A DNA stretch of 64,000 bases from Candidatus Altiarchaeota archaeon. GTDB lineage: Archaea > Altiarchaeota > Altiarchaeia > IMC4 > SCGC-AAA252-I15. The notes under the pieces were generated by a model. That model was not told the origin of the DNA and made no database searches. It was given only the letters and a program-made list of their open reading frames with translations. The translations under genes were made by a program, and so were the position numbers. How positions within the stretch are numbered: the stretch's first letter is position 1; each line of letters starts with the position of its first letter. The stretch covers positions 8,887 to 72,886 of the forward strand of contig JAZDIN010000004.1 of NCBI GenBank assembly GCA_043804895.1, given 5' to 3'. This document shows, piece after piece, positions 11,784 through 55,850 of this stretch.

Positions 11784-11885
11784 CAACGACCAGCGGCCTT
11801 AGCCGCTGGTTTGATAAGCATGAAACCGCAATATTAGATGCATACATTAACCGCCCACCCAAAGGGGGGCGGTTTCATCGCTTAT
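11784..11885 (+). repeat. 102-nt structured element, copy X (divergent copy; its 3' end overlaps the leuA start codon)
   Basis: caacgac-cagcggc-ctta-gccgctg-gtttgataagcatgaaaccg...ccgcccacccaaaggggggcgg-tttcatcgcttat. It has the same length and two-domain fold as copies Y and Z, with compensatory changes. It is flanked by AT (11782-11783) and ends in AT (11884-11885). Confidence 0.75.
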
Positions 11886-13407
11886 GAATCAGTTCTGGTA
11901 CGACAGGAATGTCGAACCTAAGGGGAAGCCGAAGAGGATTCAGGTTTTTGACACCACGTTAAGGGATGGAGAGCAGACGCCGGGAGTCAACTTCACTGCC
12001 GAGGATAAGAAGGAGGTAGCCTCGGCCCTGTCGAAGCTGGGGGTGGACTTTATCGAAGCCGGATTCCCAATCTCAAGCGAGGGGGAGTTCAAGGCAGTTA
12101 AGGGGATAAAGGAGCTGGGACTCAAAAGCAGGATAGTCGGCCTCGCCCGCTGCGTCGGGAAGGACATGGACGCGGCGTTGGACGCTGGCGTAGACATGGT
12201 CCACATTTTCATAGGCACTTCGCCGATTCATAGGGAGTATAAGCTGAAGATGACGAGGGAGGAGATTCTGAAGAGGGCGCAGGAGAGCATACAGTATGTG
12301 AGGGACCACGGGGGTAAGGTGCACTTCAGCCCTGAGGACGCGTGCAGGACTGAGCTCGACTTCCTGAAGGAGGTGTGCGTGATGGCTGAGTCGAATAAGG
12401 TGGAACACATCAACATCCCGGACACAGTTGGCGTTATGACTCCTGCTGCGATGGGATGGCTCATCGCGGAGCTGAAGGGGGTTGTGAAGGTTCCTCTTGC
12501 AGTTCACTGCCACAACGACTTCGGGATGGCAGCAGCGAACACGATAACGGCGGTGATGTCCGGTGCGGTGATACCGCACGTCACAGTCAACGGCCTCGGG
12601 GAGAGGGCGGGCAACGCCGACCTAGAGCAGGTCGTCCTCGGGTGTAAGCTAATACACGGTGTGGAATCGAACGTGAACACGAAGAGAATATGGGAGACCT
12701 CAAGGCTCGTGGAACGGTTGAGCGGCATTAAGGTGATGCCGAACTTCCCGATAGTCGGAGGCAACGCGTTCGCCCACGAGAGCGGAGTCCACGTCCACGG
12801 AGTCCTCGCGAAGGCCGCCACCTACGAGGCCATCAAGCCTGAGATTGTGGGTGCGAAGAGGAAGCTCGTCCTCGGGAAGCTCGTCGGCAAACACGGAGTC
12901 AAGGACAAGCTGAACGCGATGGGGTTGAAGGTCACTGAAGAGCAGGCGAGGGACATAACACAGAAAGTGAAGGACCTAGGAGACAAGGGCAAGAGAGTCA
13001 CAGAGGAAGACCTGGCCGCGATAGCAGAGGACATGGTCGGAAAAGGCTCGAAGAAGGAGAGATTGGTAGAGCTGAAGGATATGACATTGCACATGGAGTA
13101 CGGAGTGAACCCGACAGCCACAGTCGCGCTCCTTGTAAAGGGCAGGGAGAAGTATGCTAGGGCCGTGGGCGTCGGCCCCGTGGATGCGACGTTGAACGCG
13201 ATAAGGGCCGCCCTCGGAGACAAGGACATACAGTTGGACGACTACCACCTCGACGCCATATCAGGAGGGTCAAATGCCCTCGCAGACGTGTCAATCAAAG
13301 TCAGCAAAAACGGGAAAAGCACCATGGCCCGGGGAGTACACGAAGACGTCGTAATGGCATCAGTACTCGCGTTCATCAACGGAGTCAACAGGATAATGAG
13401 AAAATAG
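11884..13407 (+). CDS. leuA: 2-isopropylmalate synthase / (R)-citramalate synthase family (LeuA/CimA)
   Basis: 507 aa. It has the FDTTLRDGEQTPGV catalytic N-terminus, HCHNDFGMA, NGLGERAGNA, and a C-terminal LeuA-dimer regulatory domain. The sequence alone cannot separate LeuA from CimA. Confidence 0.85.
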   Translation: MNQFWYDRNVEPKGKPKRIQVFDTTLRDGEQTPGVNFTAEDKKEVASALSKLGVDFIEAGFPISSEGEFKAVKGIKELGLKSRIVGLARCVGKDMDAALDAGVDMVHIFIGTSPIHREYKLKMTREEILKRAQESIQYVRDHGGKVHFSPEDACRTELDFLKEVCVMAESNKVEHINIPDTVGVMTPAAMGWLIAELKGVVKVPLAVHCHNDFGMAAANTITAVMSGAVIPHVTVNGLGERAGNADLEQVVLGCKLIHGVESNVNTKRIWETSRLVERLSGIKVMPNFPIVGGNAFAHESGVHVHGVLAKAATYEAIKPEIVGAKRKLVLGKLVGKHGVKDKLNAMGLKVTEEQARDITQKVKDLGDKGKRVTEEDLAAIAEDMVGKGSKKERLVELKDMTLHMEYGVNPTATVALLVKGREKYARAVGVGPVDATLNAIRAALGDKDIQLDDYHLDAISGGSNALADVSIKVSKNGKSTMARGVHEDVVMASVLAFINGVNRIMRK

Positions 13408-13411
13408 ACTG

Positions 13412-16400
13412 TCAGTATTTCCTGGGTCCTGACAGCATCTCGTCTGACACCCAGTAGGTTCTGGCTTCCATGTCAGGTTGTTGTTCAAGGATTTTTGCTT
13501 TCTCCAGCCGGTCCACAACGTCTATTATCTCCTTGGGGGTGTGCGGGAGGTCTTCGTTTTCTGAGGGGTTCTGCCAGTAGAGGTGCATGCACAGTCTTTC
13601 CAGGTGTCTTTGCCTTATGGTGTGCCACAGGTTCAGGCGGTGTCCGCTTAAAGTCTCTATGATCTTCACCATTATATCCTTAGTTTCGGCAGTGCCTCTC
13701 ACCTCCTCGCTTAGTATCTTGCCTAGGGTCTCCTGCGCAAGGTTTTCAAGGTTCTCGTCTCCTGGGAACTTTTTCGTCAGCGCGTAGTATCCTCGCGTGC
13801 CGACTGGGATTATTAGTCCCTGTTTCTTTAGGGATTGTACCACGTTGTTAACTTTGCTCTCGTCTATCCCCAGGTCTTGTGCCACTTCCTTGTTTATGCC
13901 CTCGCGTTTCATTATGCCCTGCCCGACGAGGAGCACGTTAGATATGACCTTGAGGACCGCCCTGGCGGCATAGGGGTTAGGGAACCGTGATATGCGTTCC
14001 TCGATCTCCGCCTCTCTGTCCTCCAGGGCAGGGTGTAGGACCATTGCCGGGTTCGGAACAGTAATTTCGTACATGTCCTTCAGTATGTGTACGTCGCGGT
14101 GGTCTTCATAAGACCTTGGCTTTTCCTTCAGGATGTGCGGGCTGATGGCGTCAGTCTCATGGTCTGCCTCCAGCAGTATACCAACGTGGCGTAGCTCGCG
14201 CAGCAAATCCCTCACGTAAGGGTTCATGACATCTTTTGTCTCCGGCAACCCTGGACAACCATTCGTCAGGCAGTCGGTGACGAGGTCATCTCTACCTACC
14301 GTGTGGTTCGGCTTGTTAGAGATTATGTTGATTATTAGACGGGCTGCCTCGAGTTTATCGTCCTTGACATTAAGCAGCAACCTCTCTAGCCTCATTTTAT
14401 TAACATTCTCGTTAGTCTGGTCCCATGAGGTTGTCTTACCATCGTCTGATTTTATGTCTCTGAGGAGGCATCCATCAGATACGCTTGGGCTTGTTTCAGG
14501 GTCGGTTACTACACCAAGCCGAGACAATTCCCTGAGGTCTGCCTTTATCCCTTCGATACGACCAGCTTCGGTGTCTGGGTATATGACCCCAAGTACCGGG
14601 TGTTTTGAGCAGAGTTCTGCCAATTTCTTTATCTCCAGGTGGCCGGTGAAGTGGCTTACAGCTTTTGCCAGCTCCTCCTCCACGTAGCTTAACCTCCTGT
14701 TGTTTATGGTTTCCGCGTTAACGTAGCGTTGGAAAGCGTGGAACGGGTGGGGGAAATCCGGTTGGGGGCGTCTCTTGTACGGGTTCGCAAAGACCTTCCC
14801 GTCCATGAGTATCATGTCCTTTTGCATGAGTTCCTTCCTTGTCATCTTGTGCGTTGATGATGCTGTGGTTGATGGTGTTGTGCTGACTTCTCCCTCGTCT
14901 TCTTCCTCGGGGTCTTTCCCGAGTATTCTTGTATACTCAACATAACTGATCGAGCCTTCTTTGTTAAGCTTTCCCACAACGACCATTGTCTTGTTCACGT
15001 CCTTCAGGTGTCTTGAGTCGATCAGCATCGTCGGGGGAAGCGAACCAGTCTGCCCGTAAAGTTTCTCTGCCCCGATTCTGTTAAGATTTTTGAGAGCATC
15101 AATGCTTGCGAGTCCCCTGTGTTTTCCGGAGCCGACCTTTCTGAGATAGTCTTCGACAAGACCCCACACCTTACTGCTCTTGCGCTCCCATGTGTCGAGA
15201 GTCTGGATCTCGTCTAGTGCCTCCTTCCTCGTTAAAAAGTCTATGAGTATAGGCTGTTTCGCTATCGCCCTGAAGTATTCTGTCGTGTCTATGCCCCTCT
15301 TCTTCAGGTCTTTGGCGTCGATCTTCTGCAGCTTCCTTATGCGCATGTTGACGTTTAGCGTCCCGTACGATTCGGTAAGTGCTCCGAAGTCGCTGGGTCT
15401 CCCAAGGAACACAGCCCTTAGTATGGACTCCTTTGTTGCATCTTCTCCTAGTTCAACGTCCGGCAGTTTTGAAAGGACTTCAGACATCTCCTCCGCTAGT
15501 TTCACCCCCCTGTCTATCCTCCCGAGGTCTGTGCATTCATCGATGTTTTTCGTGTTCTGGAGTATGTGTGTTAGGAATCCCATCTGGAAGTCGGATTCGC
15601 CGACGCCCCCCATTCTTTTGACTGCGGGAATGATCTTCTTTTCGATGTCCCTCGCCGCCGTTTTGCCTGTCATGAAAATCCTGAAGTTGTTGTTCCATTT
15701 CGCCAGATCTAACATCCTAAGGTATGCGTCCTCCCCGAGTTCTTTGCCTAAGTTGAGGGTCCAAATTCTTAGCACCCCCTCTATCACCCTCTCCGCTTCA
15801 ACCACGTCCACCTGTGGGGGGAGTGGTTTTGCTGGGATTTCTTCAGTGGTGGCGCCTTCACCTACTGTGAGAGTCTTATCTTCTGCAGGCTCGGCGGGAG
15901 CGGGCTTCGGAGGCTCGACCATGCCGATTATGACATCAAGCTGGTAGACTATGTCTTCTAAGATAGGCCTTGAGATTCGTTTATGTTCTTCCAGGTCATC
16001 TCTGTATTTTTGTTTTGGGATGAGTTCAGGGTCTATGCGGGGCTCTGATGATTTAAGATCCTTTTCTAATTGTTCTAATTGTGGGCTTAGAAAATGCCAG
16101 GCCGCTGTTTTTTGTCTTTTCTTTCGTGTGTCTGCTGTTAGGAACTCTAGTTGGTCTTGTTTGTCTTGCGGGATGAAGTTGGGGTGTAGGTAGGTGTCGA
16201 CTGATTCGCCGCCTCCTTTAGTCAGGTATGAGGTGGCTAGGATAAACTCGGCATATGCCCAGTCTCCCGCGTTGATGTGGTCTATCAGCCTCTGGGTCCT
16301 CTCCGAGTCACGGGACAGTGTCTTCCACTCTGGGAGTTTTTCTTTTTTTATTAGTTCGGCGCCGGCGGCGGCTCTGAAAGGCCCTTCCTCCTGCCTGAGG

Positions 16401-19400
16401 AGTGATGACAAATTCTCTAGGGTTGTTTTTTCTAGCCCCGCAACTACAGATAGTGTGTTGAACTCATCCTCCCTGCCGTCGGCTTTAAGCCAGAATGCGT
16501 CCTCAAGTACTGCCGTGGACTTCCCGTGCAGCTTCACGATTTCCGTGTGGTGTTCTCTGAGGAACTCGTCTGCGGAGGGGATGCTTCCCCTGTCAGCCCA
16601 GTTATAGTACCAGCCGGCCAATCCGAGGTCGCAGTTTTGAGGTAGTGTGTCCTCGAACTTCCTCTCCCCTTCGGATATGCCATGTAAGGCCGCCATTTTT
16701 TCCCCCATATTTTGTGGCGTCATATCGGTCAATGCTTCTCTGAGATGTGTGAAGTATTCGCCGTCAAGCAGTTGGAACCTGCCGACCTCTCGGATGTCCT
16801 GTGCGAATTGGCCTAGGTTGAGGACTCCCTTGATGACTTCGATTCTGCCCGCACCTACCACAGCCGATCTTAGCGTTTGGAGGGCTCTGACGACCGTCTC
16901 GGGCTTAGTGCCGCTGTGATTCTCTTTGAACTGTTTGATGAACTGTTGCGCTTCGCCGGTTGATGCGAAAAGCTTCGGGTTGTCGGACCAGATTCTGGAG
17001 AATTCCTCCCTGACTCCTCTGTCAAAGTCGCCAAACATCATATTCACTACCCTCGGCCTCTCCTCAGGGTGTATGCCCTCTGCCTCCCAGGAGCGGTCTC
17101 TTGCCTTTGTCAAGTCTGTGATGGTATTTTCCTGGTTCGCTAGTAAGGGCGTAAGGTGTTCGACGCCGGTGACCTTCAGTATGCTGTTGACTTCCCGGAG
17201 TGTGTTATCTCTTTTGGCTTCATCGTCTGAAATCGTTAGGATAACCTGGGCTTTCACACTCTCGTCGCCGCCTTTACCGAGCCTCCTCAATGCCTCCTCT
17301 GCAAGCTGCCACCGATTCTTTGGACCTGACCAGCGGGAGAGTTTTTCAAGATTTTCCGGTGTGAAAAAGTCTCTGTGCTCCCCCCCGACTAGGAGGCCCA
17401 GTATGCCACCCAGTTTACCTGCATTTTTCAGGGCGTGTAGGTGGTCTATTGTCCTTGGTTCCTCTTCGATGAGGTTACTGACAGTGTCGGAGGTGATTGC
17501 AGAGGTGTGTTCCGAGAGTAGGTTCAGATATTTCGCAGCCGACCCCTTCGAGGTCTCCTCAGCCCTCAGCAGGAGGGATGTAGTCCCTTCTGATGCTAGT
17601 AATGCACGCCTGTCAGGTTCAGAGTCCATGAACAGGTCGAAGTAATCTTGCACGTATGGTCTTTTGACCATCTCTTTCAGCGTGTCCCTGTAGTCTGGAT
17701 TGGTTAAACATGAGAAATATTTTAGAGCGTATTCTGCCTCCCTGCTGGAACCCTCTGGCATGTTCTCTGGCTGCTTTAGTTTAGTCCGGCCCTGGGCCGA
17801 CCTTAATAGGCGGTCCATCAACGGGCCCAGTATCTCCGGCTCCGCCTCCACTGTTTGCAGGAAGGCTTTACCAGTCTCTGATGTGGGTATGAGATACTCC
17901 TGCGCCCTCTCAATCCTATAGAAGCCTAATACGGTCTTGGGTGTGTCAGGCCCCATCCTTTCCAGCTGGTCCAAGTATTCTTGTGTTACCACCATGTCAA
18001 GACGGTCCATCCTATCCAGGGGTATCCTGTCAAGGGACTGGACATAGTCCACCATAAATTGTCTTTCAACGTTCCCCTTCTTTGAGATTAGCTCGTATAT
18101 CTCCGCCGGTATGTCCTTTTTTTCGCCTGGCTGGTCTTCTTTAACGAATAGTGTATTGATGTCTATGGATTCATCCCCTAAACCAGTGCCGCCGGTAACT
18201 CCCTCTGTCCAATATGCTGCTGAGAGTGGCTGATTCTCCCTGTTGAGCTTTATTACCCGGTCTATGAACTCGTTGAAGTGGTAGTTCATAGAAAGGCTCA
18301 CCCTGCCCTCCTGGACCTTAGCCAGCTTCTTGTCGACTTCCCTTTCTATGAGTCTCATACCGTCCAGGTTTTTTATATTCGTGGTGGCGGCTGGGAGTTT
18401 AGTCACAGCACCGTTTATCTCCTTAATCCATTTTAGCATCTGCTCCATCGAGTCTATGCTCCCCCACTGGTCCAACTCCTCCAGGGACAGGAGGAACGCG
18501 TTATTCGCTTCTTTCGCGTCTCCGAGTTGTTTTATGAAATTTGGGCTTTCTGGCTCGCCAGCGTTTACCGCGGATATTGCTTCTCTGAGCGAGGTCACAG
18601 GAGCTGAACTCCGTAGGACATAATGGAATTGTTCACGCATCTTTGTCATGTTGTCCGTTAGGCTGCCTAGAGCAATGACCGAATCATATGCCACGTCGAC
18701 AACGGCTGTGGAGTACAGCGTCTGTTGTTCGGGCTTAAGGGACAACACCCCCTTAACAACATCCATGAACTTCGCCGGGTTGATTTCCGATAGGGTATCC
18801 GGATGGAAAAAATCTTCGGGTTTGACTTCGGCTTCTGATTCTATCCCCTTAGTCCGTTCCAACACACCCTCGCGTACCGTCTCGAATGGTACGCCGGCCT
18901 TCAGCTTGGAGGCCATCTCCTCCATCACCTCTATCGCCGATTTGACGGTATCGGAGTCCCTTATTTTCGTCATACCGGCCCTAACGGTCTCCCTGGCGGT
19001 TATGTCCTCTTCTTTGATTGAACGTTCGATGATCTTATCGCTTTTCCAGTATTTCGTTCTTTTCCTCAGGTCCTTTAAGACGTGGTTGATTTCTTCACCG
19101 CCTTCAATCCTCTGGACGAATTCTTTTATCTCCCCGATAGCTGCTAGCACTATTATGTATCGTTCAACGCGGTCGTATGTTTCCTTCATTTGGGAGGAGT
19201 GCGTTCTAACTGCTGCGCTATACCCAAAGGCATCTGTCAGATGTTTCTGGGCCGCGTCAATGTCCTCAAACCCGATGGACGAAAGCGCCTGCTCCCGTAG
19301 GTCAGGTTTTAGGCGTAGGATGTAGGAGGGGTCGAATGACACTATTTTTCCGAGGACTGTCTTATCGTCTTGGGTGATGCTTGGCTCAGCGATTCTGAAG

Positions 19401-21277
19401 AGTAGGGACATGAATCTCCTCCTTGACGTTTCATCAGATTTTTCATGAGAAGTTAACGTATCGGAATAGGTCAGATTCACCCACCGGATTACGTGGTGGT
19501 TGGCTTTGTTTGCTATTTCCAGAGCACTGTCCTTTGTGTATGATTTATTGGTTTCCTGGTCTACTAGCACCCGCTCTTCACCGAATTTTACCCCGCGCAT
19601 CAGGAGGGCATATTCTGCCTGGATGAAAGACAACACCCTCCGCCTCATCTGCTTCTCATCCAACACGTCCACTGTAGGCCCCTCGCCCCCACCAAATGAG
19701 ACGGAGATTGGCATATTATCGCCACCTTCGTGTTCACGTAATTTAATGGTTGACAACAGCGTCTGCTCAGCCAGGCCTTTCTGCCTCGACTCTAATTGGG
19801 CAAGGTTGTCGATTGTCTCCTGCCTCGCGGCTGTAGCAAATTTAGGTTTCATGTGTTCAGGTATGGCAGCCAGCGACCTCACATAGGTTGGCATGAAAGG
19901 GAGCCCGCTGTTTTCTAGTATCAGTCCAAGGACTTCTGGTCGGCACAATCTGTCATCTACAGTCAACGCTGGTTGGCTGGAGGTGTCTATCTTAACAGCC
20001 GACTCCCAAAGTGCCTTAGCAACAAGTGGTGTCATCCTGTCAGAAAGTAACACGCCCATAAGGCTTGACATGTTCTCCTGGGCTTCTTTCAGGGTTACTG
20101 CCTCCCCATGGTCCTTTAAACGTTCTCCCATACCGTCCAGACCACGCTTTATTGACTTGACATAGTCTTCAGTGTCAGGGGGTAAGGGGGAGTCGACAAG
20201 GGCATCGGTTAGATTAGAGGCCCACCCTATCATTTTTAGTATGGGGACACCCATCCCCCATGCATTCAGCTGCCTGGAGACTTTTAAAATCTCCTTATTT
20301 GCAGCATCCAGTATTTTAAGCTTTTTCTGGAACGTCTTCGTCCCAGCTTCCTCGCCCGCAACATCAGTTAAACAGGCAGCCCATTTTTTCAAGATCTCCT
20401 CTTCACCCATATTCGAGGCGATTGTCCCGCCAAGATCTAGCACAGCCAAGGATGCATTTGTCAAGCTCCCCGCAGAATTTATTCCTACACCGAATAGCAG
20501 GGTTGTATAGAACTTTTTCTCCCCTTCCGCTAATTTTCCCTCATTCAGTAATTCGGACATGCGGGTAATAACACCCTTCCTCAAATCAAATACCTGACTG
20601 GGGTTTAGTGCCTCTTCGCTCTGGTTTGACCAGAATTCGGATGGGCTTACCTCCTGACCAGCGTCATACTTGCCTTTTACTTCCCGCATTTTTTTGACAA
20701 TACCGTGACCTGTCCGTTCAAAACGGAATCCGGCCCTCACCGCATCCAGTGCCTTACCTGCCCCATCTTGACTGAAACCAATCGCTTTCAAAGTATCAAC
20801 TGCCTCGTCTTCTTTCAGAAGGAGTAGAGAGTATGCTGATGGCGCAAACCTAAGCTCATCACCCATGAAAGTCGTGTCCAAGAGTAAATTGAACAACTGC
20901 TTGTCAGGTAGGCCCTTGGTTTTTGCACCCAATTCGAGTATTTCACCAACTATCACCTCGGACATTTTCTTGTCCATTTTTTCGGAGGCGAGGGAGTCGC
21001 TGAAACGCCATAAAAGCCATTTCAGATATTTTGGATTGCTCTGCTCAACTGCCTTGAGTACCTGGTCAAGTTTGACATCTGAATATTTTTCCTTAACCTG
21101 AAATTCGCCTTTTTTCACATAAACCGGTAGCGTGCCCTTAACCGGCCCATCTGCTTTTTCGAATACCTTCTGGATGTAGTCTATTATTCTTTTTCTTGTT
21201 TCCATGACTCCATCCATCAGTGGGGGGAGCCCTCCGCCATCACCCCAATGGTAGTACTTTGTAGGGCCTAGTGGCAT
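13412..21277 (-). CDS. Giant hypothetical protein (2621 aa), cytoplasmic and largely alpha-helical, with four C-terminal winged-helix-like modules
   Basis: A single uninterrupted 7.9-kb ORF. All + strand ORFs across it are short shadow ORFs. I see no signal peptide, TM segment, P-loop or HExxH. The C-terminal 450 aa shows a fourfold pattern ending LRELSRLGVV, LRELRHVGILL, VQSLKKQGLIIPVGTRGYYALT and VDRLEKAKILE. Confidence 0.8.
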   Translation of the reverse strand: MPLGPTKYYHWGDGGGLPPLMDGVMETRKRIIDYIQKVFEKADGPVKGTLPVYVKKGEFQVKEKYSDVKLDQVLKAVEQSNPKYLKWLLWRFSDSLASEKMDKKMSEVIVGEILELGAKTKGLPDKQLFNLLLDTTFMGDELRFAPSAYSLLLLKEDEAVDTLKAIGFSQDGAGKALDAVRAGFRFERTGHGIVKKMREVKGKYDAGQEVSPSEFWSNQSEEALNPSQVFDLRKGVITRMSELLNEGKLAEGEKKFYTTLLFGVGINSAGSLTNASLAVLDLGGTIASNMGEEEILKKWAACLTDVAGEEAGTKTFQKKLKILDAANKEILKVSRQLNAWGMGVPILKMIGWASNLTDALVDSPLPPDTEDYVKSIKRGLDGMGERLKDHGEAVTLKEAQENMSSLMGVLLSDRMTPLVAKALWESAVKIDTSSQPALTVDDRLCRPEVLGLILENSGLPFMPTYVRSLAAIPEHMKPKFATAARQETIDNLAQLESRQKGLAEQTLLSTIKLREHEGGDNMPISVSFGGGEGPTVDVLDEKQMRRRVLSFIQAEYALLMRGVKFGEERVLVDQETNKSYTKDSALEIANKANHHVIRWVNLTYSDTLTSHEKSDETSRRRFMSLLFRIAEPSITQDDKTVLGKIVSFDPSYILRLKPDLREQALSSIGFEDIDAAQKHLTDAFGYSAAVRTHSSQMKETYDRVERYIIVLAAIGEIKEFVQRIEGGEEINHVLKDLRKRTKYWKSDKIIERSIKEEDITARETVRAGMTKIRDSDTVKSAIEVMEEMASKLKAGVPFETVREGVLERTKGIESEAEVKPEDFFHPDTLSEINPAKFMDVVKGVLSLKPEQQTLYSTAVVDVAYDSVIALGSLTDNMTKMREQFHYVLRSSAPVTSLREAISAVNAGEPESPNFIKQLGDAKEANNAFLLSLEELDQWGSIDSMEQMLKWIKEINGAVTKLPAATTNIKNLDGMRLIEREVDKKLAKVQEGRVSLSMNYHFNEFIDRVIKLNRENQPLSAAYWTEGVTGGTGLGDESIDINTLFVKEDQPGEKKDIPAEIYELISKKGNVERQFMVDYVQSLDRIPLDRMDRLDMVVTQEYLDQLERMGPDTPKTVLGFYRIERAQEYLIPTSETGKAFLQTVEAEPEILGPLMDRLLRSAQGRTKLKQPENMPEGSSREAEYALKYFSCLTNPDYRDTLKEMVKRPYVQDYFDLFMDSEPDRRALLASEGTTSLLLRAEETSKGSAAKYLNLLSEHTSAITSDTVSNLIEEEPRTIDHLHALKNAGKLGGILGLLVGGEHRDFFTPENLEKLSRWSGPKNRWQLAEEALRRLGKGGDESVKAQVILTISDDEAKRDNTLREVNSILKVTGVEHLTPLLANQENTITDLTKARDRSWEAEGIHPEERPRVVNMMFGDFDRGVREEFSRIWSDNPKLFASTGEAQQFIKQFKENHSGTKPETVVRALQTLRSAVVGAGRIEVIKGVLNLGQFAQDIREVGRFQLLDGEYFTHLREALTDMTPQNMGEKMAALHGISEGERKFEDTLPQNCDLGLAGWYYNWADRGSIPSADEFLREHHTEIVKLHGKSTAVLEDAFWLKADGREDEFNTLSVVAGLEKTTLENLSSLLRQEEGPFRAAAGAELIKKEKLPEWKTLSRDSERTQRLIDHINAGDWAYAEFILATSYLTKGGGESVDTYLHPNFIPQDKQDQLEFLTADTRKKRQKTAAWHFLSPQLEQLEKDLKSSEPRIDPELIPKQKYRDDLEEHKRISRPILEDIVYQLDVIIGMVEPPKPAPAEPAEDKTLTVGEGATTEEIPAKPLPPQVDVVEAERVIEGVLRIWTLNLGKELGEDAYLRMLDLAKWNNNFRIFMTGKTAARDIEKKIIPAVKRMGGVGESDFQMGFLTHILQNTKNIDECTDLGRIDRGVKLAEEMSEVLSKLPDVELGEDATKESILRAVFLGRPSDFGALTESYGTLNVNMRIRKLQKIDAKDLKKRGIDTTEYFRAIAKQPILIDFLTRKEALDEIQTLDTWERKSSKVWGLVEDYLRKVGSGKHRGLASIDALKNLNRIGAEKLYGQTGSLPPTMLIDSRHLKDVNKTMVVVGKLNKEGSISYVEYTRILGKDPEEEDEGEVSTTPSTTASSTHKMTRKELMQKDMILMDGKVFANPYKRRPQPDFPHPFHAFQRYVNAETINNRRLSYVEEELAKAVSHFTGHLEIKKLAELCSKHPVLGVIYPDTEAGRIEGIKADLRELSRLGVVTDPETSPSVSDGCLLRDIKSDDGKTTSWDQTNENVNKMRLERLLLNVKDDKLEAARLIINIISNKPNHTVGRDDLVTDCLTNGCPGLPETKDVMNPYVRDLLRELRHVGILLEADHETDAISPHILKEKPRSYEDHRDVHILKDMYEITVPNPAMVLHPALEDREAEIEERISRFPNPYAARAVLKVISNVLLVGQGIMKREGINKEVAQDLGIDESKVNNVVQSLKKQGLIIPVGTRGYYALTKKFPGDENLENLAQETLGKILSEEVRGTAETKDIMVKIIETLSGHRLNLWHTIRQRHLERLCMHLYWQNPSENEDLPHTPKEIIDVVDRLEKAKILEQQPDMEARTYWVSDEMLSGPRKY

Positions 21278-29249: not shown

Positions 29250-30026
29250 CTACCCTTTCTTGAAGACTTCCAACGCTTCCTTAGGCTTAGCCTTCTCGTG
29301 GACGACAGCACGCACAGCCTTTATCATCGCGACTGGATTTTCGGACTGGAAGATGTTGCGGCCCATGTCCACGCCAACCGCGCCTGCGTGCATCGCGTCG
29401 TAGGCCATCTTCAGCGCCTCCTCCTCTGGGACCTTCTTCCCTCCTGCAATGACTATTGGGACAGGGCATGTGTCGACGACCCGCTCGAACCCCTCCACAT
29501 AGTATGTCTTCACTATGCTGGCTCCAAGTTCAGCAGCCATCCTCGAGGCGAGGGCCATGTATTTCGCGTCGCGGACCATCTCCTTCCCGACCGCTGTCAC
29601 GGCGATGACGGGGATGCCATATCTCATAGCATCGTCGACGACTTTTGTGAATCCGAGTAGGGTATCGCGTTCGAAGTCAGCCCCCACCAGTATGGAGAAG
29701 GCGACTCCGGCCACGTTCAACCTAATCGCATCCTCCATGGATGCGACAACACCCTCGTGGAGTAGCTCCTTCCCGATTATGCTCGTCCCGCCTGAGACTC
29801 GAAGGACGATTGGCACATCCACATTCGGGTCGACGTAGTTCCTCAACGCACCGCGAGTTAACATCAACGTGTCAGCGTACGGGAGGAGCGGGTCAACCAT
29901 CGCCTTAAAATCATCCAACCCAGTCGTAGGCCCCATGAAGTAGCCGTGATCTACTGCCAGCATCACCGTGCGCCCGGTCTTCGGCTTAATTATCCTTGAC
30001 AAACGATTCCTCAAACCCCAGTCCAT
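29250..30026 (-). CDS. Class I aldolase of the DhnA/FbaB/ADH-synthase (AroA') family
   Basis: 258 aa with MLAVDHGYFMGP, GVAFSILVG, a Schiff-base region IVKTYY, and GVDMGRNIFQ. Confidence 0.8.
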   Translation of the reverse strand: MDWGLRNRLSRIIKPKTGRTVMLAVDHGYFMGPTTGLDDFKAMVDPLLPYADTLMLTRGALRNYVDPNVDVPIVLRVSGGTSIIGKELLHEGVVASMEDAIRLNVAGVAFSILVGADFERDTLLGFTKVVDDAMRYGIPVIAVTAVGKEMVRDAKYMALASRMAAELGASIVKTYYVEGFERVVDTCPVPIVIAGGKKVPEEEALKMAYDAMHAGAVGVDMGRNIFQSENPVAMIKAVRAVVHEKAKPKEALEVFKKG

Positions 30027-30027
30027 A

Positions 30028-30231
30028 TCAACCCTCCTTCCTCACTATAACGTATCCCCTCCCATCCAGCCAGTGGTGGAACTGCCAGGCCATGCACTTC
30101 CTGCACTCGGCCCTCGTCCTCTCATACTCGACCGAACCCTCCTTATGATGGTTCATCTTAAGCTGCACAGGACATTTAATGTCCCTACAGTACTCCCTCT
30201 TCTGATAGTCAACGTAACCTGAGATAGGCAT
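30028..30231 (-). CDS. Small Cys-rich (putative Zn-binding) protein, 67 aa. The track ORF extends to 30327 through a repeat.
   Basis: MPISGYVDYQKREYCRDIKCPVQLK...AECRKCMAWQF. The upstream 32 codons of the track ORF (MDFMLSNISEGTRLTIPPKRSKELCPQLYLSK) are encoded by repeat module M3, which recurs at 45365-45426. I therefore take the start as the ATG at 30231. Confidence 0.5.
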   Translation of the reverse strand: MPISGYVDYQKREYCRDIKCPVQLKMNHHKEGSVEYERTRAECRKCMAWQFHHWLDGRGYVIVRKEG

Positions 30232-30242
30232 TTTCGAGAGAT

Positions 30243-30304
30243 ATAGCTGAGGGCATAACTCTTTAGACCTCTTAGGGGGTATAGTGAGCCTTGTGCCCTC
30301 AGAT
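30243..30304 (-). repeat. Hairpin module M3 (62 nt), copy B
   Basis: Its reverse complement aligns with 45365-45426: atctgagggcacaaggc...ttatgccctcagctat. The terminal arms ctgagggca and tgccctcag pair. Confidence 0.75.
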
Positions 30305-30351
30305 ATATTCGAGAGCATAAAATCCAAGTCAAGAAGGTTATGCTCTCGACT
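30305..30351 (-). repeat. Hairpin module M1 (47 nt), copy B
   Basis: The reverse complement, agtcgagagcataaccttcttgacttggattttatgctctcgaatat, has a perfect 12-bp stem (tcgagagcataa / ttatgctctcga). It aligns with 45264-45310. Confidence 0.75.
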
Positions 30352-30397
30352 ATAATATAGTAAGGACGGTTACGTTAAAAATAGGCGACCACAGCCT

Positions 30398-30452
30398 GTG
30401 ACTGAGAGCCGCTGCTCTCAGACACATTCAGCAACCATTGGCTGCTGAATAT
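30398..30452 (+). repeat. Hairpin module M2 (55 nt), copy B
   Basis: gtgactgagagccgctgctctcagacacattcagcaaccattggctgctgaatat forms two hairpins joined by the conserved acacattc. It aligns with 45311-45364, with compensatory changes in both stems. Confidence 0.75.
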
Positions 30453-30554
30453 CAACGACTGCCGGCTAAAGCCGGCAGTTTGATACGCCGGAAACTACCT
30501 AGTCGAGAGGACTCCCTGAGGGTGTCCCCTGAAGGGGACAGTTTCCGAGCGTAT
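30453..30554 (+). repeat. 102-nt structured element, copy Y (intergenic, directly abutting M2)
   Basis: caacgactgccggctaaagccggcagtttgatacgccggaaact...gtcccctgaaggggacagtttccgagcgtat. The first 45 nt or so and the last 25 nt or so are near-identical to copy Z. It is preceded by TAT and ends in TAT. Confidence 0.8.
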
Positions 30555-30766
30555 AAAGGCTGCGGTATTCTCGGATTCAGCAAGTATGCACTCACGCAAC
30601 ATACTGCCGAATCCTCGAACGGGACGACCCCCATATTTTCCTCAGTCTAGGTGGTCTTAGCTTCGTTCTATTAAAGATAGCGTAAGATTGTTAGGAGATT
30701 CCAGGATATACCTATTGATGGTTTTGATTTACCCTACCAACAGAAAAGGACAGCGATCAACAGAAA

Positions 30767-31339
30767 CTATGTTCTCATTAGAAATAGGAGTAGGAGTATT
30801 GGTGAAAAAATTATTATGACAAGACAAATATCCCCCAGAACATATGCAAGGAACGATCGCCAAAAGCTTATTTGATGCAATTTACTTAGCCCAATGATTT
30901 GAAGCACTCCCATATATGCGTAGGATATGTGACTCACATAGGGTATGCTCATCAACAAAAGGTGGGGGGTCGCACCATAACTGAATGCTTTATAAGTCTC
31001 CGAAAAGTTACCACTCCCACCTAGAATTCTTGTAAAAACGTGTATCAACCCCGATGTGAAGAACGTGGCGATAAAAAATACAATATATAAAAAAGAGGTG
31101 TTAATTAACACGATTATAGTGACGTGACCACTACTGCTGAAATTTTGGACAATCACAGTTACTACAAAGTCGATCAACATAGCGATCGGCAATAAAACAA
31201 ACAAATAGCTGACGGCTTTTTTTATACCCTCCTCTGAATGAATCTCAGTCCAACAAGTGTTTGGTTCAAACAATATTGATTTAACTCTTGGAATAAAAGC
31301 CATAACAGTAGAGTGCTTTGCTTTGCCTTTAGTTTTCAC
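30767..31339 (-). CDS. Yip1-domain-like polytopic membrane protein
   Basis: 190 aa, or 178 aa from MAFIPRV at 31303. A short N-terminal segment is followed by 5 TM helices, and the pattern resembles the Yip1/DUF1282 family. AT-rich. Confidence 0.5.
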   Translation of the reverse strand: MKTKGKAKHSTVMAFIPRVKSILFEPNTCWTEIHSEEGIKKAVSYLFVLLPIAMLIDFVVTVIVQNFSSSGHVTIIVLINTSFLYIVFFIATFFTSGLIHVFTRILGGSGNFSETYKAFSYGATPHLLLMSIPYVSHISYAYMGVLQIIGLSKLHQISFWRSFLAYVLGDICLVIIIFSPILLLLFLMRT

Positions 31340-31546
31340 GATAAATACTTGTGTTCTTATATTTTAGTACCTGTGTGTTTATGAGGTGTTTCTAAATGAG
31401 TTTTCAGCACGATCTCCTGAAACTCCGCTATTCTCCCTTTGCTAGAATAGTCCGGCTACTTCTTACCGCCTTTTTCCCATCCTCCGTCACTCACTTTTTA
31501 TCCTCTTAGGATAGAGGTTAAAAACGATTATTTCATTTTCTTGAGG

Positions 31547-31594
31547 TTCCCCCACCTAAATCGAACAGAGTGTTCTAGTCCCGGTCGGGGCGAA
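31547..31594 (+). repeat. R-family repeat, copy R3 (3' part only)
   Basis: ttcccccacctaaatcgaacagagtgttctagtcccggtcggggcgaa aligns with the 3' half of R4. Confidence 0.7.
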
Positions 31595-31714
31595 GTTATC
31601 CAATTCCCTAATATATGTCGGTTATGACGTCCTTAGCTTGTACTGTCTGAGCCTCCTGAGAGATTTGAACACTTTGTACGAGGTAATGTTTTTACCCCTA
31701 CAAAATGCCTAATT

Positions 31715-31757
31715 TGTAGTCATATTTTTGTAGTCATATTTAAACTTGTAGTCATAT
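31715..31757 (+). promoter_or_regulatory. Three direct copies of tgtagtcatat immediately upstream of the Fic ORF
   Basis: Copies lie at 31715-31725, 31729-31739 and 31747-31757. The 9-mer gtagtcata is the 3' arm of the R-family hairpin, and its complement tatgactac overlaps the Fic stop at 32705-32713. Confidence 0.6.
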
Positions 31758-31758
31758 A

Positions 31759-32709
31759 GTGTTATTGATGCACATTGAGGTTCAGGAGCGCGGCGGGAAG
31801 AAGTTCATTTATGTGGCTCATTCCTTCCGTCATGGGGGTAAAGTTAGGAAGTTGAGGAAATATCTAGGAGTCAACCTTAGTGGAAAGGAGATATCTTCTT
31901 TGAGGCCTGCTGCTGAGAAGGCGCTGATGTGGCGGGCTGAGGCGAGTAAGAGCATCCGCGACCCCCTGAAGACTGTTTTGTCTCCTCAGGAGATGGCGTC
32001 TATCAAGTCCTTGATTGGAAAGCACGACATTAAGATAAGCCATCTGTCTGAAAAACAGTGGGTTAGATTCACCGAACTCTTCGCATATGATACTAACGCC
32101 ATAGAAGGGTCAACAGTGGATTTGGCCGAAGTCAAAGGCATATTGGAGAGAGATAAGTGGCCTGACAAGGCGAAGGATGAGATTGCTGAGACATATGGGG
32201 TGTCTGACGCAGTCAAGTTGATTAGGAGGACTAAAGAACACCTGTCAATCGAGTTGATAATGGAACTACACAAAATTGTTTTCAAGAACTCTAAAGGGTT
32301 CGCGGGTAGGCTGCGCCCACCTGGAGTAGAAGTAGTGGTCACAAACCGTTTTGGAGAGATCATCCATAGAGGCGCACCCCAAAAACATGTCTTGAAACTT
32401 CTAAAGGAACTCGTGGAATGGTACGCAGAAAACAAGAAACGATACCACCCTATTGTCCTTGCAGCTGTCGTCCACAACCACTTCGAAAACATCCACCCAT
32501 TTGAGGATGGAAACGGGAGGGTTGGAAGACTCCTATTGAACAACATACTACTTAAGCACGACCTCCCCCCAGTTAACATTGAATTAAAAAACAGAAAAGG
32601 GTACTACGCTTCTTTACAAGCGTACGAAAAGGCGGGTAATCTCAGACCAAGTATAGAGTTGGTATTAACGTCCTATGACAGACTCAAGAAAACCCTGAGG
32701 AGTATATGA
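31759..32709 (+). CDS. Fic-domain protein (AMPylase / Fido family)
   Basis: Carries the canonical Fic motif HPFEDGNGRVGRLL. The ATG at 31768 (MHIEVQERGG) is the more likely start; the track starts at the GTG at 31759. Confidence 0.85.
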   Translation: MLLMHIEVQERGGKKFIYVAHSFRHGGKVRKLRKYLGVNLSGKEISSLRPAAEKALMWRAEASKSIRDPLKTVLSPQEMASIKSLIGKHDIKISHLSEKQWVRFTELFAYDTNAIEGSTVDLAEVKGILERDKWPDKAKDEIAETYGVSDAVKLIRRTKEHLSIELIMELHKIVFKNSKGFAGRLRPPGVEVVVTNRFGEIIHRGAPQKHVLKLLKELVEWYAENKKRYHPIVLAAVVHNHFENIHPFEDGNGRVGRLLLNNILLKHDLPPVNIELKNRKGYYASLQAYEKAGNLRPSIELVLTSYDRLKKTLRSI

Positions 32710-32789
32710 CTACATGCCCCAGAGGCGTAGTCATACAGAGTTTCCCCCACCTAAACCGAACAAACTGTTCGAGTCCCGATCGGGGCGAC
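32708..32789 (+). repeat. R-family repeat, copy R4 (best-preserved copy)
   Basis: tatgactac (32705-32713) and gtagtcata (32727-32735) form the hairpin. Then come tttcccccacctaaa, the hairpin cgaaca-aac-tgttcg, and gagtcccgatcggggcgac followed by a T6 run. Confidence 0.8.
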
Positions 32790-32930
32790 TTTTTTCAAGG
32801 GGGTACTAGTTCTGTTATAATTTATTTTTAGCTTATTTGGTTAGGGTTCATTTGTTAATGTGAGGGGGTTTGAACCTTAAAGTTGTAGTCTTGATGTAAT
32901 TACCGCTTGCCAGCAGTGCAAACACGCCTG

Positions 32931-34520
32931 TTAGGAGTGGATGATGTTGGCTGCCAAAACCCCGAAGCCCACCATTGTGCAGATTATTATTGTTAAGACG
33001 GTTAAAGTCACCAGCGCAATTCCCAGTATTATGATTTTTACCTTGTTTATTCTTTTTTTAGGGGGTAAAAGGTAGTAGGTACCGATGACAGTTGTCAGAA
33101 ATATCGATACACCGAAGACGATCGTCGCAACCACAAAAACCAATCCCCCGAATATCATGGTGTTAGTGTTTGGACCGTTGGGGACCTCAACGATCGCAAA
33201 TGTGCTCAAATGAGGAGCAAGCGCAGCATAACGGCATATGTTGCTGTCACAACTAATCTTCCAACTAGGAAGTTTTTCCCAGGATTTTTTATCCTCATTA
33301 TATATTGCAACAGCAACCCCTTTTGCATTAGCAGCGTCTGAGGCTTGCTTACCTAAAAGAAGTTTAGTAAATGAATCCCAGCTATAACCTTGAGGCTTAT
33401 ATTTGGCAGCATCAGATTTTGTTTCTAAGTATTTAAATAAATCTTGCTGGGATTTAAGCTGCTCTGCAGTAACCTTAGACTCAGATTCAGAGTAGGCATA
33501 ACTATGTCTTGTCGTTGAGAATTCTATAAGTGCCTGCGAATAATCTTCATAAGGCTGATCATTATTCTTAGTGTTCACAACAAGCATCTTATCAACCTGC
33601 TCGCCATTTTTACTAGGATAATCAGGAGCTCTGTTTGCGCCCCTATAATTCTGCCAATCTTTTCCATAAATAACAGAAACATCCATGGTAGCATCATCAG
33701 TAGGTTGTTTTAAAGTAGTGGTAATCCGGGTGACTGTTGCACCCTCAGGCAATGTGGCGCTTACATCGTCCCCTGATTTTCTATTTTTTATATTATATTC
33801 TACATTAATCTTTGGCAAAGATTCTCCAATACCTTGCTGTTTTAAAGTGTCTGCTGAAACTGAATTTCCATCTTCATCTGAAATCTTTCCAGCAGGCAAT
33901 TGAACTGCTTGCCCCACCCAGTCATCTATTGCAGAGCCAATAATTTGCTGAGCCTGAGCTATTTGTTGTTCCTGTTCTTCCTGAGATGCAATTCTCTTTA
34001 TGCACCGGCTATTTTCCCAGGAGCAGATATAGAATGTGGCGCAACTGTTGAGGCATTTCTGCTTTGCATCATCTTGTTGCTGCGATTGCGTCGTGGTGGT
34101 TCTGGGTTGGGTTGTTGTGGTCTTAAACAAGGTAGTGCTAGGCGGTTGCGGCTGTGTTGAGGTGGTGGTCCTGATCCTTTTTATGCACTGGTGATTCTCC
34201 CAGGAACAGACATAGAATGATGCGCAGCTGTTGATGCATTTAGTCCGATCATAATTTTCATCATAGGTGCAGCCCCCGGTTATGCTGTACCTGGCCCCAT
34301 ATTCTGCCGCACCAGCCCGACACTGCGCAACACCGTTAGCAACCAATTGTTGACATGAAGCTTGGTCAGGGAAATATTTCGGCCCCCAGCATTCCTTGTA
34401 ACCCTGTATAAAACAACAGCCTTCGAATTTCCACGGCCCCTCTCCAGAAACGGCAGAAAAACCTCCACTCATTAAAAGTCCAAACACAACTATGATGGAA
34501 AAAAGTTTTTTCTGTTTCAT
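32931..34520 (-). CDS. Secreted / membrane-anchored Cys-rich surface protein
   Basis: Signal peptide MKQKKLFSIIVVFGLLMSGGFSAVSG. The module C.NSCA.FY.CSWEN..CIKRI is duplicated, separated by T/Q-rich linkers (TTTSTQPQPPSTT, TTTTQPRTTTTQ). There are two C-terminal TM helices. Confidence 0.7.
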   Translation of the reverse strand: MKQKKLFSIIVVFGLLMSGGFSAVSGEGPWKFEGCCFIQGYKECWGPKYFPDQASCQQLVANGVAQCRAGAAEYGARYSITGGCTYDENYDRTKCINSCASFYVCSWENHQCIKRIRTTTSTQPQPPSTTLFKTTTTQPRTTTTQSQQQDDAKQKCLNSCATFYICSWENSRCIKRIASQEEQEQQIAQAQQIIGSAIDDWVGQAVQLPAGKISDEDGNSVSADTLKQQGIGESLPKINVEYNIKNRKSGDDVSATLPEGATVTRITTTLKQPTDDATMDVSVIYGKDWQNYRGANRAPDYPSKNGEQVDKMLVVNTKNNDQPYEDYSQALIEFSTTRHSYAYSESESKVTAEQLKSQQDLFKYLETKSDAAKYKPQGYSWDSFTKLLLGKQASDAANAKGVAVAIYNEDKKSWEKLPSWKISCDSNICRYAALAPHLSTFAIVEVPNGPNTNTMIFGGLVFVVATIVFGVSIFLTTVIGTYYLLPPKKRINKVKIIILGIALVTLTVLTIIICTMVGFGVLAANIIHS

Positions 34521-34609
34521 ATCTGCTTTCTAGCCACAATTACCTATTAAACTACACTATTAAAAACAATCTTAATCTCATGAAACTGTGAAACCACATT
34601 ATGACATAT

Positions 34610-34714
34610 GACTACAAAAACCTAAGAGGTAGTCATACAAACTCAAATGTCACCAGTTTGCGTCTATCGTTTTCTTTGGGGATTCGAACAAACAATTCGA
34701 GTCCCAATCGGGGC
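34610..34714 (+). repeat. R-family repeat, copy R5 (hairpin and 3' core conserved, middle diverged or expanded)
   Basis: tatgactac (34607-34615) and gtagtcata (34629-34637), then cgaacaaacaattcgagtcccaatcggggc ending 1 nt before the stop of the class II aldolase gene. Confidence 0.7.
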
Positions 34715-45234: not shown

Positions 45235-45263
45235 GCTATCCTATAGGGGGTGCAGGGTATTAT

Positions 45264-45310
45264 ATTCGAGAGCATAACCTTTTTGACTTGGATTTTATAC
45301 TCCCGAATAT
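45264..45310 (+). repeat. Hairpin module M1 (47 nt), copy A
   Basis: attcgagagcataacctttttgacttggattttatactcccgaatat. Its stem has 2 mismatches relative to copy B. It is preceded by tattat. Confidence 0.75.
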
Positions 45311-45364
45311 GTGGCTGAGACATATGTCTCAGACACATTCGACAGCCAATAGGCTGTCGCATAT
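45311..45364 (+). repeat. Hairpin module M2 (54 nt), copy A, lying between M1 and M3
   Basis: gtggctgagacatatgtctcagacacattcgacagccaataggctgtcgcatat, with hairpins ctgagac/gtctcag and cgacagcc/ggctgtcg. In the other locus M1 and M3 are directly adjacent. Confidence 0.8.
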
Positions 45365-45426
45365 ATCTGAGGGCACAAGGCTTATGATACCCCCTAGGAA
45401 TTCTAAAGAATTATGCCCTCAGCTAT
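45365..45426 (+). repeat. Hairpin module M3 (62 nt), copy A
   Basis: atctgagggcacaaggcttatgataccccctaggaattctaaagaattatgccctcagctat, with terminal arms that pair. Confidence 0.75.
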
Positions 45427-45440
45427 AAATCCGGCCGACT

Positions 45441-50732: not shown

Positions 50733-50780
50733 GTGGAGTACATGCAACTGTCCCTTGGAAGGGACAGTTTCCGAGCGTAT
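50679..50780 (+). repeat. 102-nt structured element, copy Z (inserted at the MNT/HEPN junction)
   Basis: caacgactgccggctaaagccggcagtttgatacgccggaaact...gtcccttggaagggacagtttccgagcgtat. It is flanked by TAT (50676-50678) and ends in TAT (50778-50780). Removing it restores an overlapping gene pair. Confidence 0.85.
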
Positions 50781-55838: not shown

Positions 55839-55850
55839 GAGGATACGCTC

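Follow-up and report, generated by a model that had tools for sequence, protein, structure and literature searches.

Copies and fold of the 102-nt element

The DNA analysed in this study is a 64 kb stretch (the window) of a metagenome-assembled genome (MAG) of Candidatus Altiarchaeota, and statements on the genome side are limited to it. The window carries three copies of a non-coding 102-nt element built of two hairpins, all on the plus strand, namely X (11784-11885), Y (30453-30554), and Z (50679-50780). Copy X, of the X-type subfamily, lies between the Shine-Dalgarno sequence and the ATG of leuA, the gene for 2-isopropylmalate synthase. Copy Y ends a 314-nt array of hairpin repeats; the stretch around it is free of genes and bordered on both sides by minus-strand genes. 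Copy Z stands between the genes of an MNT antitoxin and a HepT toxin. The LeuA protein encoded beside X was 100% identical to '2-isopropylmalate synthase [Candidatus Altiarchaeota archaeon]' of an NCBI MAG, and the species representatives nearest by LeuA were Altiarchaeota, with 77-78% identity. An earlier note on the window had described three plus-strand copies of exactly 102 nt, and full-length alignment confirmed their number, length, and boundaries. The same note saw no open reading frame (ORF) in the element. It is true that the element holds no gene, but ORFs of 70 and 60 codons, neither of them gene-like, cross Y, and the MNT ORF extends into Z by 18 codons.

Each copy folds into the two domains that had been proposed, H1 of approximately 34 nt and H2 of approximately 72 nt. 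Minimum free energies ranged from -47.8 to -54.6 kcal/mol; relative to shuffled sequences, the z-scores were -7.0 to -7.6. Domain H1 of Y (30451-30484, plus strand) reads ATCAA-CG-ACTGCCGGC-TAAA-GCCGGCAGT-TTGAT, in which the first AT is the flanking dinucleotide, and its inner hairpin measures 22 nt. Its plus-strand equivalents lie at 11782-11815 (X) and 50677-50710 (Z); among the copies, three of the 10 pairs are changed on both sides, and the CG bulge is conserved. Domain H2 of Y (30483-30554, plus strand) is made up of the basal stem (ATACGCCGGAAACT / AGTTTCCG-A-GCGTAT), which encloses a centre of variable sequence and the apical hairpin GTCCCC-TGAA-GGGGAC (30524-30539). Its plus-strand equivalents lie at 11814-11885 (X) and 50709-50780 (Z), with four of the 15 basal pairs changed on both sides. 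The apical hairpin, 16-26 nt long among the copies, stands inside a basal stem of 14-15 bp, which extends right up to the element's end. Y and Z share 88% identity overall and differ in the centre, as had been noticed before.

Occurrence of the family

The H1 search pattern ATCAACGAC-N4-GGC-N4-GCC-N4-GTTTGATA, with up to three mismatches allowed, had exactly three matches in the window (X, Y, and Z) and none in 100 dinucleotide-preserving shuffles. The pattern had no match in 185,579 GTDB species representative genomes and three matches in the JGI metagenomes, two of which were due to chance. The genuine one is a fourth copy of 103 nt on a metagenomic contig (L001, 263-367), with an H2 domain of the X type; it lies upstream of a deoxyhypusine synthase gene, with the next ATG 64 nt away.

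A covariance model (R1), which had been suggested as a check, was built from these four copies and run on the window and on related loci. It scored X, Y, and Z at 109, 113, and 116 bits, respectively, and with its filters off it found neither a further copy nor a solo H1 or H2 in the window; the metagenome scan gave no solo domain either. No further copy was detected in 22 archaeal loci, 17 of them from Altiarchaeota or their closest relatives, or in two further Altiarchaeota contigs (L082 and L152). A pattern of the H1/H2 junction had 69 matches in IMG/VR, all due to chance, and the covariance model detected none of these 69 viral loci. No match was obtained by blastn with Y against plasmids and with X against phages, and a profile of the open frame across the element, run against 5.8 billion proteins, gave no ORF that reads through other copies. 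These results indicate that the 102-nt family is real but rare in public data, because L001 held the single extra copy among all collections searched.

Conservation of base pairing

In the four-copy alignment, 95.8% of the pair cells were paired, compared with 86% in column shuffles and 34-44% with slid partners. Nine pairs were changed on both sides, three in H1, four in the basal stem of H2, and two in the apical hairpin; the first two counts are those reported earlier. In H1 and the base of H2 together, all seven varying pairs that keep pairing were altered on both sides, one-sided changes were absent, and two more pairs varied, only through a single mismatch. Two irregularities of the fold, the CG bulge of H1 and the 1-nt bulge in the 3' arm of H2, hold a fixed position in X, Y, and Z, which bears out the earlier observation on the latter bulge; the L001 copy has a U.U mismatch adjoining the bulge column. 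Base pairing, and not sequence, is conserved in the element.

The earlier note took this as a sign of selection on the structure, at the level of RNA or single-stranded DNA. Because all seven compensated pairs were changed on both sides, such selection fits the data, and we consider it reasonable but not proven. The same compensatory picture could be produced by concerted evolution of the arms of a palindrome or by repair within an extruded palindrome. The complementary strand folded almost as well as the plus strand (z -5.3 to -7.4), two mismatches of the G.T versus A.C kind favoured the minus strand and are too few to count, and the GC skew, considered as a guide to the active strand, was flat around X and Y.

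Copy X separates the leuA ribosome-binding site from its start codon

The Shine-Dalgarno sequence of leuA, GGGAGGT (11768-11774, plus strand), now stands 110 nt from the ATG instead of approximately 8 nt. The gene itself (11884-13407, plus strand; Pfam HMGL-like 8e-87 and LeuA_dimer) is intact, its ATG consists of the last two bases of X and a host G, and the N-terminus of the protein, MNQFWYD, is common to its homologues. The window reads GGGAGGTATGCGACAT[X]GAATCAGTTCTGG at this place, whereas the orthologous locus of L152, whose LeuA is 80% identical, reads GGGAGGGATGACGTATGAACCAGTTCTGG without interruption. In L082 (LeuA 81% identical), the Shine-Dalgarno sequence leads straight to the ATG and the element is absent. 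Three other loci (L004, L007, and L013) resemble L152 and L082 in that a GGAGG-like box leads directly to the ATG. The Shine-Dalgarno regions of the orthologues read, for example, GGGAGGGATGACGTATG in L152 and GGGAGGTGTTTTCGATG in L007, and the AT site itself reads ..GTATGAACCAG in orthologues. The spacing agrees with this comparison. In the four closest relatives, the stop codon of an upstream leader ORF and the leuA ATG are 76-79 nt apart, and in the window they are 176 nt apart, that is, 74 + 102 nt. The search for empty sites that the earlier note had recommended thus gave empty orthologous loci, for example in L152 and L082, at 80-81% LeuA identity. We believe that there is a strong case, made by comparison rather than by direct observation of mobility, for X as an insertion that split the leuA Shine-Dalgarno sequence from its ATG.

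Several side observations were made around leuA. The upstream leader ORF is conserved, has 31-40 codons, and ends in a run of leucines. It lies at 11607-11733 in the window (MEGGSYIYWTVEADEYSRGNPILQLLLLLRLRA*), at 9824-9950 in L152, and at 322-450 in L082, and it is also found upstream of leuA in L004-L009, L012, L013, and L016. In total, it was present in 12 of the 14 Altiarchaeota loci checked, its Leu codons vary synonymously among genomes, and its stop codon lies within the 5' arm of a conserved hairpin, GCGAGCGTAGA..TCTACGGCTCGC. It has the look of an archaeal control region based on a leucine leader peptide; the titles and abstracts found in one literature search concern only bacterial attenuation or unrelated topics. 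In L013, another Altiarchaeota MAG, the spacer between leader ORF and leuA contains hairpins unrelated to the 102-nt element (1915-1992), TATATGCGATGCA..TGCATCGCATATA followed by CGGGAGGA..TCCTCCCG. This pair is bounded by TATA and makes the spacer 176 nt long, equal to that of the window. Immediately downstream of leuA, the minus strand of the window carries an ORF of 2621 codons (13412-21277), at the place of which L152 has smaller, different genes (for proteins of 133 aa, 779 aa with VIT/VWA, and 354 aa).

Copy Z interrupts an MNT-HepT gene pair

Copy Z lies between an ORF for an MNT-type nucleotidyltransferase, the antitoxin (50364-50732, plus strand), and the gene of a HepT-like ribonuclease, the toxin (50779-51111, plus strand; Pfam HepT-like 8e-27). 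The last 18 codons of the MNT ORF come from Z, and the HepT ATG, like that of leuA, is formed by the last two bases of the element and a host G. As it stands, the MNT protein has 122 aa, and its solved homologue 1wot has 98 aa. When Z was cut out in silico, an MNT protein of 108 aa ending in ..RVIYEKR* was obtained, with the stop codon 14 nt inside HepT. Removing Z restores the usual overlapping MNT-HepT pair, so Z is an insertion relative to the reconstructed sequence. For annotation, this means that Z accounts for a spurious 18-codon tail of MNT, as Y does for spurious ORFs.

Consequences for translation and RNA-level explanations

Because leuA and HepT are intact and start at the end of the element, either their expression is reduced or the insert is tolerated. 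In folds computed with the flanks, the AU of the leuA start codon was paired at the base of H2. The two closed stems would bring the two ends of the element together, so that the ribosome-binding site and the ATG may stay spatially close, and an insertion between them may thus be tolerated. The two cases are clean natural insertions exactly at the AT|G of a start codon, one in leuA and one in a toxin gene, and they can be used to ask whether the archaeal ribosome bridges a ribosome-binding site split across a folded insert.

The position of X could also be explained by an intervening sequence removed at the RNA level, for example an archaeal bulge-helix-bulge intron, whose excision would restore the spacing between Shine-Dalgarno sequence and ATG. 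The host is an archaeon, and leuA appears intact although the element lies where severe harm to its translation would be expected. A bulge-helix-bulge intron has its two junctions in 3-nt bulges with a 4-bp helix between them; those of the element, however, lie at the outer ends of two different hairpins. The sequence and the folds with flanks show that the flanks of X and Z are complementary neither to each other nor to the ends of the element, and 102 nt is too small for a self-splicing intron. We give this explanation practically no credence.

A functional structured RNA was considered as well, either a small RNA family or a cis-acting element in the 5' untranslated region that controls translation of the gene starting at its 3' end; the earlier note had raised both forms. 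The strong conserved folds with compensatory changes would suit such an RNA, and X and Z end exactly at a start codon in sense orientation, with the AU paired in the stem of H2. The other evidence is less favourable. In Rfam 15, the whole window had no match at gathering thresholds, and a permissive search of three sub-regions gave psRNA14 as the best match, whose 28 bits fall short of the gathering score of 60. No relation exists among the genes downstream of the copies. Y runs antisense to the gene on each side and is followed by no gene at its 3' end, and the L001 copy is separated from the next ATG by 64 nt. Orthologous leuA and other loci in related genomes do without the element, which is also absent from the species representatives searched, and the complementary strand can form the fold equally well. 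No conserved promoter-like or T-rich terminator sequence was seen inside the element by eye, and a promoter or terminator cassette within it was considered and dropped. The regulatory reading of the earlier note is therefore very improbable, and any effect at the RNA level would, we infer, be a by-product and not the purpose of the element.

Insertion sites and ends

The dinucleotide AT stands immediately left of each copy on the plus strand, at 11782-11783 (X), 30451-30452 (Y), and 50677-50678 (Z), and matches the terminal AT of the element. AT was found on both flanks in all four copies, and the element ends in ..TAT, so the description of an AT before and a TAT at the end of each copy was accurate. 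The flanks can be read as TA..TA or TAT..TAT in three of the four copies, X having CA on its left. The reconstructed empty sites were ACAT|GAA, ATAT|GAG, ATAT|AAA, and ATAT|AAA, which gives the loose context AYAT|RAR. At these four sites, the plus-strand 5' flanks are ACAT, ATAT, ATAT, and ATAT, and the minus-strand 5' flanks are TTCAT, CTCAT, TTTAT, and TTTAT.

One of the two ATs must be host DNA, because AT supplies the start codons of leuA and HepT. The flanking AT may be either a 2-nt target duplication or a target motif plus the end of the element, and two nucleotides cannot tell which. Since the element ends with the dinucleotide that it lands beside, insertion at AT|G rebuilds the ATG; leuA and HepT therefore keep their start codons, and two of the three copies in the window abut a start codon that is intact. 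The four copies lie in four unrelated places (leuA, HepT, deoxyhypusine synthase in L001, and no gene in the case of Y).

The absence of terminal inverted repeats (TIRs), reported by the earlier note, was also found here. The end-to-end local alignment score was 4-6, compared with a shuffle mean of 4.4-5.0, so the element as a whole has no TIR. Each domain alone is a near-perfect palindrome, and the 102-nt unit as a whole is not. H1 and H2 occur together, with an identical junction, in all four copies, which shows that they travel together. Because inverted ends are lacking, the unit cannot be moved as one piece by enzymes of the kind that bind a pair of like ends in duplex DNA.

An enzyme without need of such repeats would be a transposase of the recombinase type, either an IS110-family DEDD enzyme with a guide RNA or an IS607-family serine recombinase, for which AT would be the crossover dinucleotide. 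The same dinucleotide on both flanks of all four copies is what this explanation asks for, as is the lack of TIRs. Both families are present in archaea, and relatives of IS110 often target palindromic repeats. Small repeats similar to ISNme5, of the IS110 family, have been listed (PMC11602168). The sites share only a loose 7-nt context, whereas a longer specific target is expected for an IS110-type enzyme, and hairpin pairing preserved by two-sided changes would be left unexplained. No gene of this kind was found in the window, and we regard the explanation as improbable.

Two other candidates were considered and dropped. Integron attC sites have R''/R' core sites (RYYYAAC .. GTTRRRY) around one imperfect hairpin and belong to a gene-cassette array; the ends of the element, ATCAACG and GCGTAT, do not fit these core sites, and its copies lie 19-20 kb apart among housekeeping genes. 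For a Helitron/IS91-like element, inserted between A and T and starting with TC.., the boundaries alone would be compatible, but nothing else supports it.

Copy Y and the neighbouring hairpin repeats

At least four other families of hairpin repeats with AT or TA ends are present in the window, some of them packed side by side. Copy Y closes array 1 (30241-30554, 314 nt), and a second array is found at 45262-45427. Palindrome P, of 67 nt (30241-30308, plus strand), has its second copy in the opposite orientation at 45362-45427, 89% identical. Palindrome Q, of approximately 50 nt (30304-30354, plus strand), is likewise repeated in the opposite orientation, at 45262-45310, with 92% identity. Both have ATAT/TATA ends. 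The third family, R-S, is a two-hairpin unit of 54 nt (30397-30450, plus strand) that abuts Y directly; its second copy (45309-45362) shows compensatory changes, and, like the 102-nt unit, R-S has no whole-unit inverted ends. P, Q, and R-S thus occur in two copies each, in an order and orientation that differ between the arrays, with a single TA common to neighbours, and P, Q, and R share the core C(T/G)GAG(G/A)GC. Such shared-TA arrays are the pattern expected if new insertions land in the A/T dinucleotide beside an older unit.

The arrays bear on a rival explanation of the 102-nt unit, in which H1 and H2 are two adjacent palindromic MITEs (miniature inverted-repeat transposable elements), TA-H1-TA-H2-TA, moved on double-stranded DNA by a DDE transposase of the IS630/Tc1-mariner type. 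Their cores would be TCAACG..TTTGA (H1) and CGCCGG..GAGCG (H2), the arms of each would be inverted repeats, and each would have duplicated its TA; the first insertion would thereby have provided the TA into which the second unit went. The units P, Q, S, and H1H2 in the two arrays are indeed parted by one shared TA, as nested TA-targeted insertion gives. The palindromic form of each single domain and the TA..TA..TA reading that is possible in three of the four copies agree with this explanation, and L013 offers a TATA-hairpin-TATA-hairpin-TATA layout in unrelated sequences. TA-flanked palindromic MITEs are also the commonest prokaryotic kind, for example MITEEc1/IS630 (PMC11602168). However, H1 and H2 are joined by an identical junction in all four copies, at four unrelated places, and no solo H1 or H2 was met in the window or the metagenome scan. 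The outer ends are not inverted repeats, so an enzyme that binds TIRs could not have moved the pair as one piece, and CA, not TA, stands left of X. All seven compensated pairs of the main stems were changed on both sides, some of them far from the ends, which fits a pairing requirement better than two protein-binding sites. For these reasons, we consider a pair of MITEs an unlikely explanation.

Comparison with known small repeats

Published surveys put the MITE density of Ca. Altiarchaeum at 146 per Mb, the highest reported for any archaeon (PMC11602168), and show that Altiarchaeota have the highest median insertion sequence (IS) content of the archaeal phyla, IS200/IS605 being the most widespread archaeal IS family (PMC13343696). 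In IS200/IS605 elements, the subterminal hairpins measure 20-25 nt, a short guide precedes the hairpin foot on its 5' side, and there are a target motif in the flank and a matching one at the right end (PMC6006769). Their known transposon-adjacent motifs (TAMs) include TTCAT and TTTAT (ISGst5 and ISGst2), and minimal gene-less copies similar to palindrome-associated transposable elements (PATEs) have been described (PMC10055086).

PATEs are gene-less derivatives of IS200/IS605 in haloarchaea and Geobacillus stearothermophilus. Like them, the 102-nt unit lacks TIRs. Other points can be read as likenesses, namely the lack of a clear target duplication, a hairpin near each end, and a short A/T-rich motif beside the insertion, the minus-strand flanks being similar to the TAMs TTCAT and TTTAT. 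A candidate guide, ATCAA, stands 5' of a hairpin foot and matches TTGAT, with which the element ends; PATEs are mobilised in trans, which would apply to the unit as well. The unit differs in that its two hairpins do not resemble each other, the left end is tied by a long basal stem to the region just before the right-end hairpin, and the right-end motif and its hairpin are a mere 2 nt apart. Among the ORFs of the window, no partner tnpA or tnpB turned up, and most described PATEs are longer than the 102-nt unit.

The repetitive extragenic palindromic (REP) sequences, with their composites BIME and REPIN and the associated transposase RAYT (TnpA-REP), are the second group to be compared. They too are short extragenic hairpins of species-specific sequence with compensatory evolution, and they form composites of two different hairpins and clusters of units, lack whole-unit inverted ends, and are presumed to be recognised as single-stranded DNA. 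In contrast to REP and REPIN, for which GTAG/GTGG (or CGTC) is the criterion (PMC6006769 and PMC3733652), the 102-nt unit has no GTAG/GTGG at the foot of its hairpins. On its 5' side, the H1 stem is preceded by CAACG, and the apical hairpin by AAACT or GAAAC. Three copies in 64 kb would, if extrapolated, amount to only some tens per genome of 1-2 Mb, whereas a genome usually has more than 100 REPs. The 102-nt unit has an archaeal host, and no RAYT gene was found among the window ORFs. To our knowledge, RAYTs have been described from bacteria.

TA-flanked palindromic MITEs (ERIC/MITEEc1, Correia, RUP, and Nezha; IS630-type) are also approximately 100 nt long, form long hairpins when transcribed, and insert at TA in intergenic or intercistronic DNA, often within operons. 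Families P and Q of the window look exactly like them. The 102-nt unit shares general traits with classical MITEs, being non-coding, small, and multi-copy, with empty orthologous leuA loci. It differs from the TA-flanked kind in its lack of inverted ends, its two unlike tandem hairpins, and the missing left TA in one of four copies. The MITEs of Ca. Altiarchaeum hamiconexum (PMC11602168) come from the same phylum and reach a median length of 104 bp at the density given above. This comparison was made by description only, and the catalogue was produced by a TIR-based finder, which would not report a unit without TIRs; the 102-nt family was absent from the Altiarchaeota loci fetched.

In these comparisons, the sequence family is new to every collection searched, and the kind of element, a small hairpin repeat spreading in a genome, is well known. 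The statement of the earlier note that it could be placed in no known family thus holds for the sequence and not for the kind, which is familiar from REP/BIME, PATE, and MITE hairpin repeats. What is unusual in the 102-nt element is its build. It combines two hairpins that differ from each other, lacks inverted ends, and closes with an AT by which start codons are rebuilt.

A probable mobile hairpin repeat and its possible enzyme

In this study, we believe that the 102-nt unit is probably a gene-less, non-autonomous mobile hairpin repeat of the Candidatus Altiarchaeota genome. The earlier note had offered a mobile structured element as one of its interpretations, and this gains support from the leuA orthologues without X, the gene pair restored by removal of Z, and the four unrelated contexts with AT flanks. 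The element would be copied to new sites in trans by an enzyme encoded elsewhere in the genome.

Single-strand HUH transposases, namely IS200/IS605 TnpA and the REP-associated enzymes of bacteria, are the systems that rely on hairpins and move units without TIRs. As the likeliest single candidate, though at less than even odds, we tentatively suggest a Y1 HUH enzyme of the IS200/IS605 TnpA or the REP-associated type, which would act on single-stranded DNA and take the hairpins as recognition signals; the element would then be a minimal PATE- or REPIN-like unit that consists of ends only. Read on the minus strand, the element agrees with this scheme fairly well. The flanking pentanucleotide (TTCAT, CTCAT, TTTAT, or TTTAT) is followed by the GC hairpin, which starts 13-15 nt in. 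The far end carries a hairpin of 22 nt, with ATCAA at the 5' foot, and the element closes with CG-TTGAT; this ATCAA is complementary to the terminal TTGAT. An enzyme of this kind that reads shape over sequence would explain why unrelated hairpin families occupy the same AT/TA sites. The wider proposal that Altiarchaeota carry an archaeal counterpart of the bacterial REPIN and PATE, in which a Y1 HUH enzyme would copy two-hairpin elements without TIRs in the form of single-stranded DNA, is somewhat more doubtful still.

Several points weigh against the mobile repeat or its assignment to such an enzyme. The relatives compared are only approximately 80% identical in LeuA, and no empty site of the same species was found. 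A Pfam scan of the approximately 50 window ORFs gave no transposase, so the link to an enzyme is wholly inferred. Four copies are known, and the target motif and the assignment of the strand rest on few sites. The two hairpins are dissimilar, unlike the two ends of well-studied IS200/IS605 elements, and the long basal stem of H2 has no counterpart in that family. The candidates for a left guide, ATGA in X and L001 and GAAA in Y and Z, do not covary with the flanking motif. The flanks also fit a 2-bp target duplication of TA or AT, which would mean a different class of enzyme.

If the reading as a mobile hairpin repeat is correct, a TIR-less family of novel sequence is added to a phylum known for dense small repeats, and TIR-based MITE finders would miss units of this kind. 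It opens no new RNA class and no new mechanism.

Other repeats and structured regions in the window

A repeat family of a different build occurs in five copies (5436-5529, 7304-7398, 31530-31599, 32700-32794, and 34602-34714), most of them just past gene ends. It consists of a hairpin, ATATGACTAC..GTAGTCATAC, followed by ..CCCCCACCTAAACCGAACAAACTGTTCGAGTCCCGATCGGGGCGA, and its tail resembles the 3' half of a tRNA, with T-arm and acceptor; ARAGORN and Rfam gave nothing for this repeat.

Between two divergent genes, a gene-free stretch of 470 nt (55839-56310) contains many GC hairpins and an internal repeat, GGGTCAGGAAGA, present twice. Rfam gave no match above noise for this stretch, which may be an unannotated structured RNA or another repeat array.

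Three of the five-copy repeats lie in the region 30000-34000, together with a Fic-domain gene (31759-32709) and an ORF of 529 aa without a Pfam match (32931-34520). The G+C content of this region is 0.42-0.43, compared with approximately 0.51 elsewhere, and the region may be acquired DNA.

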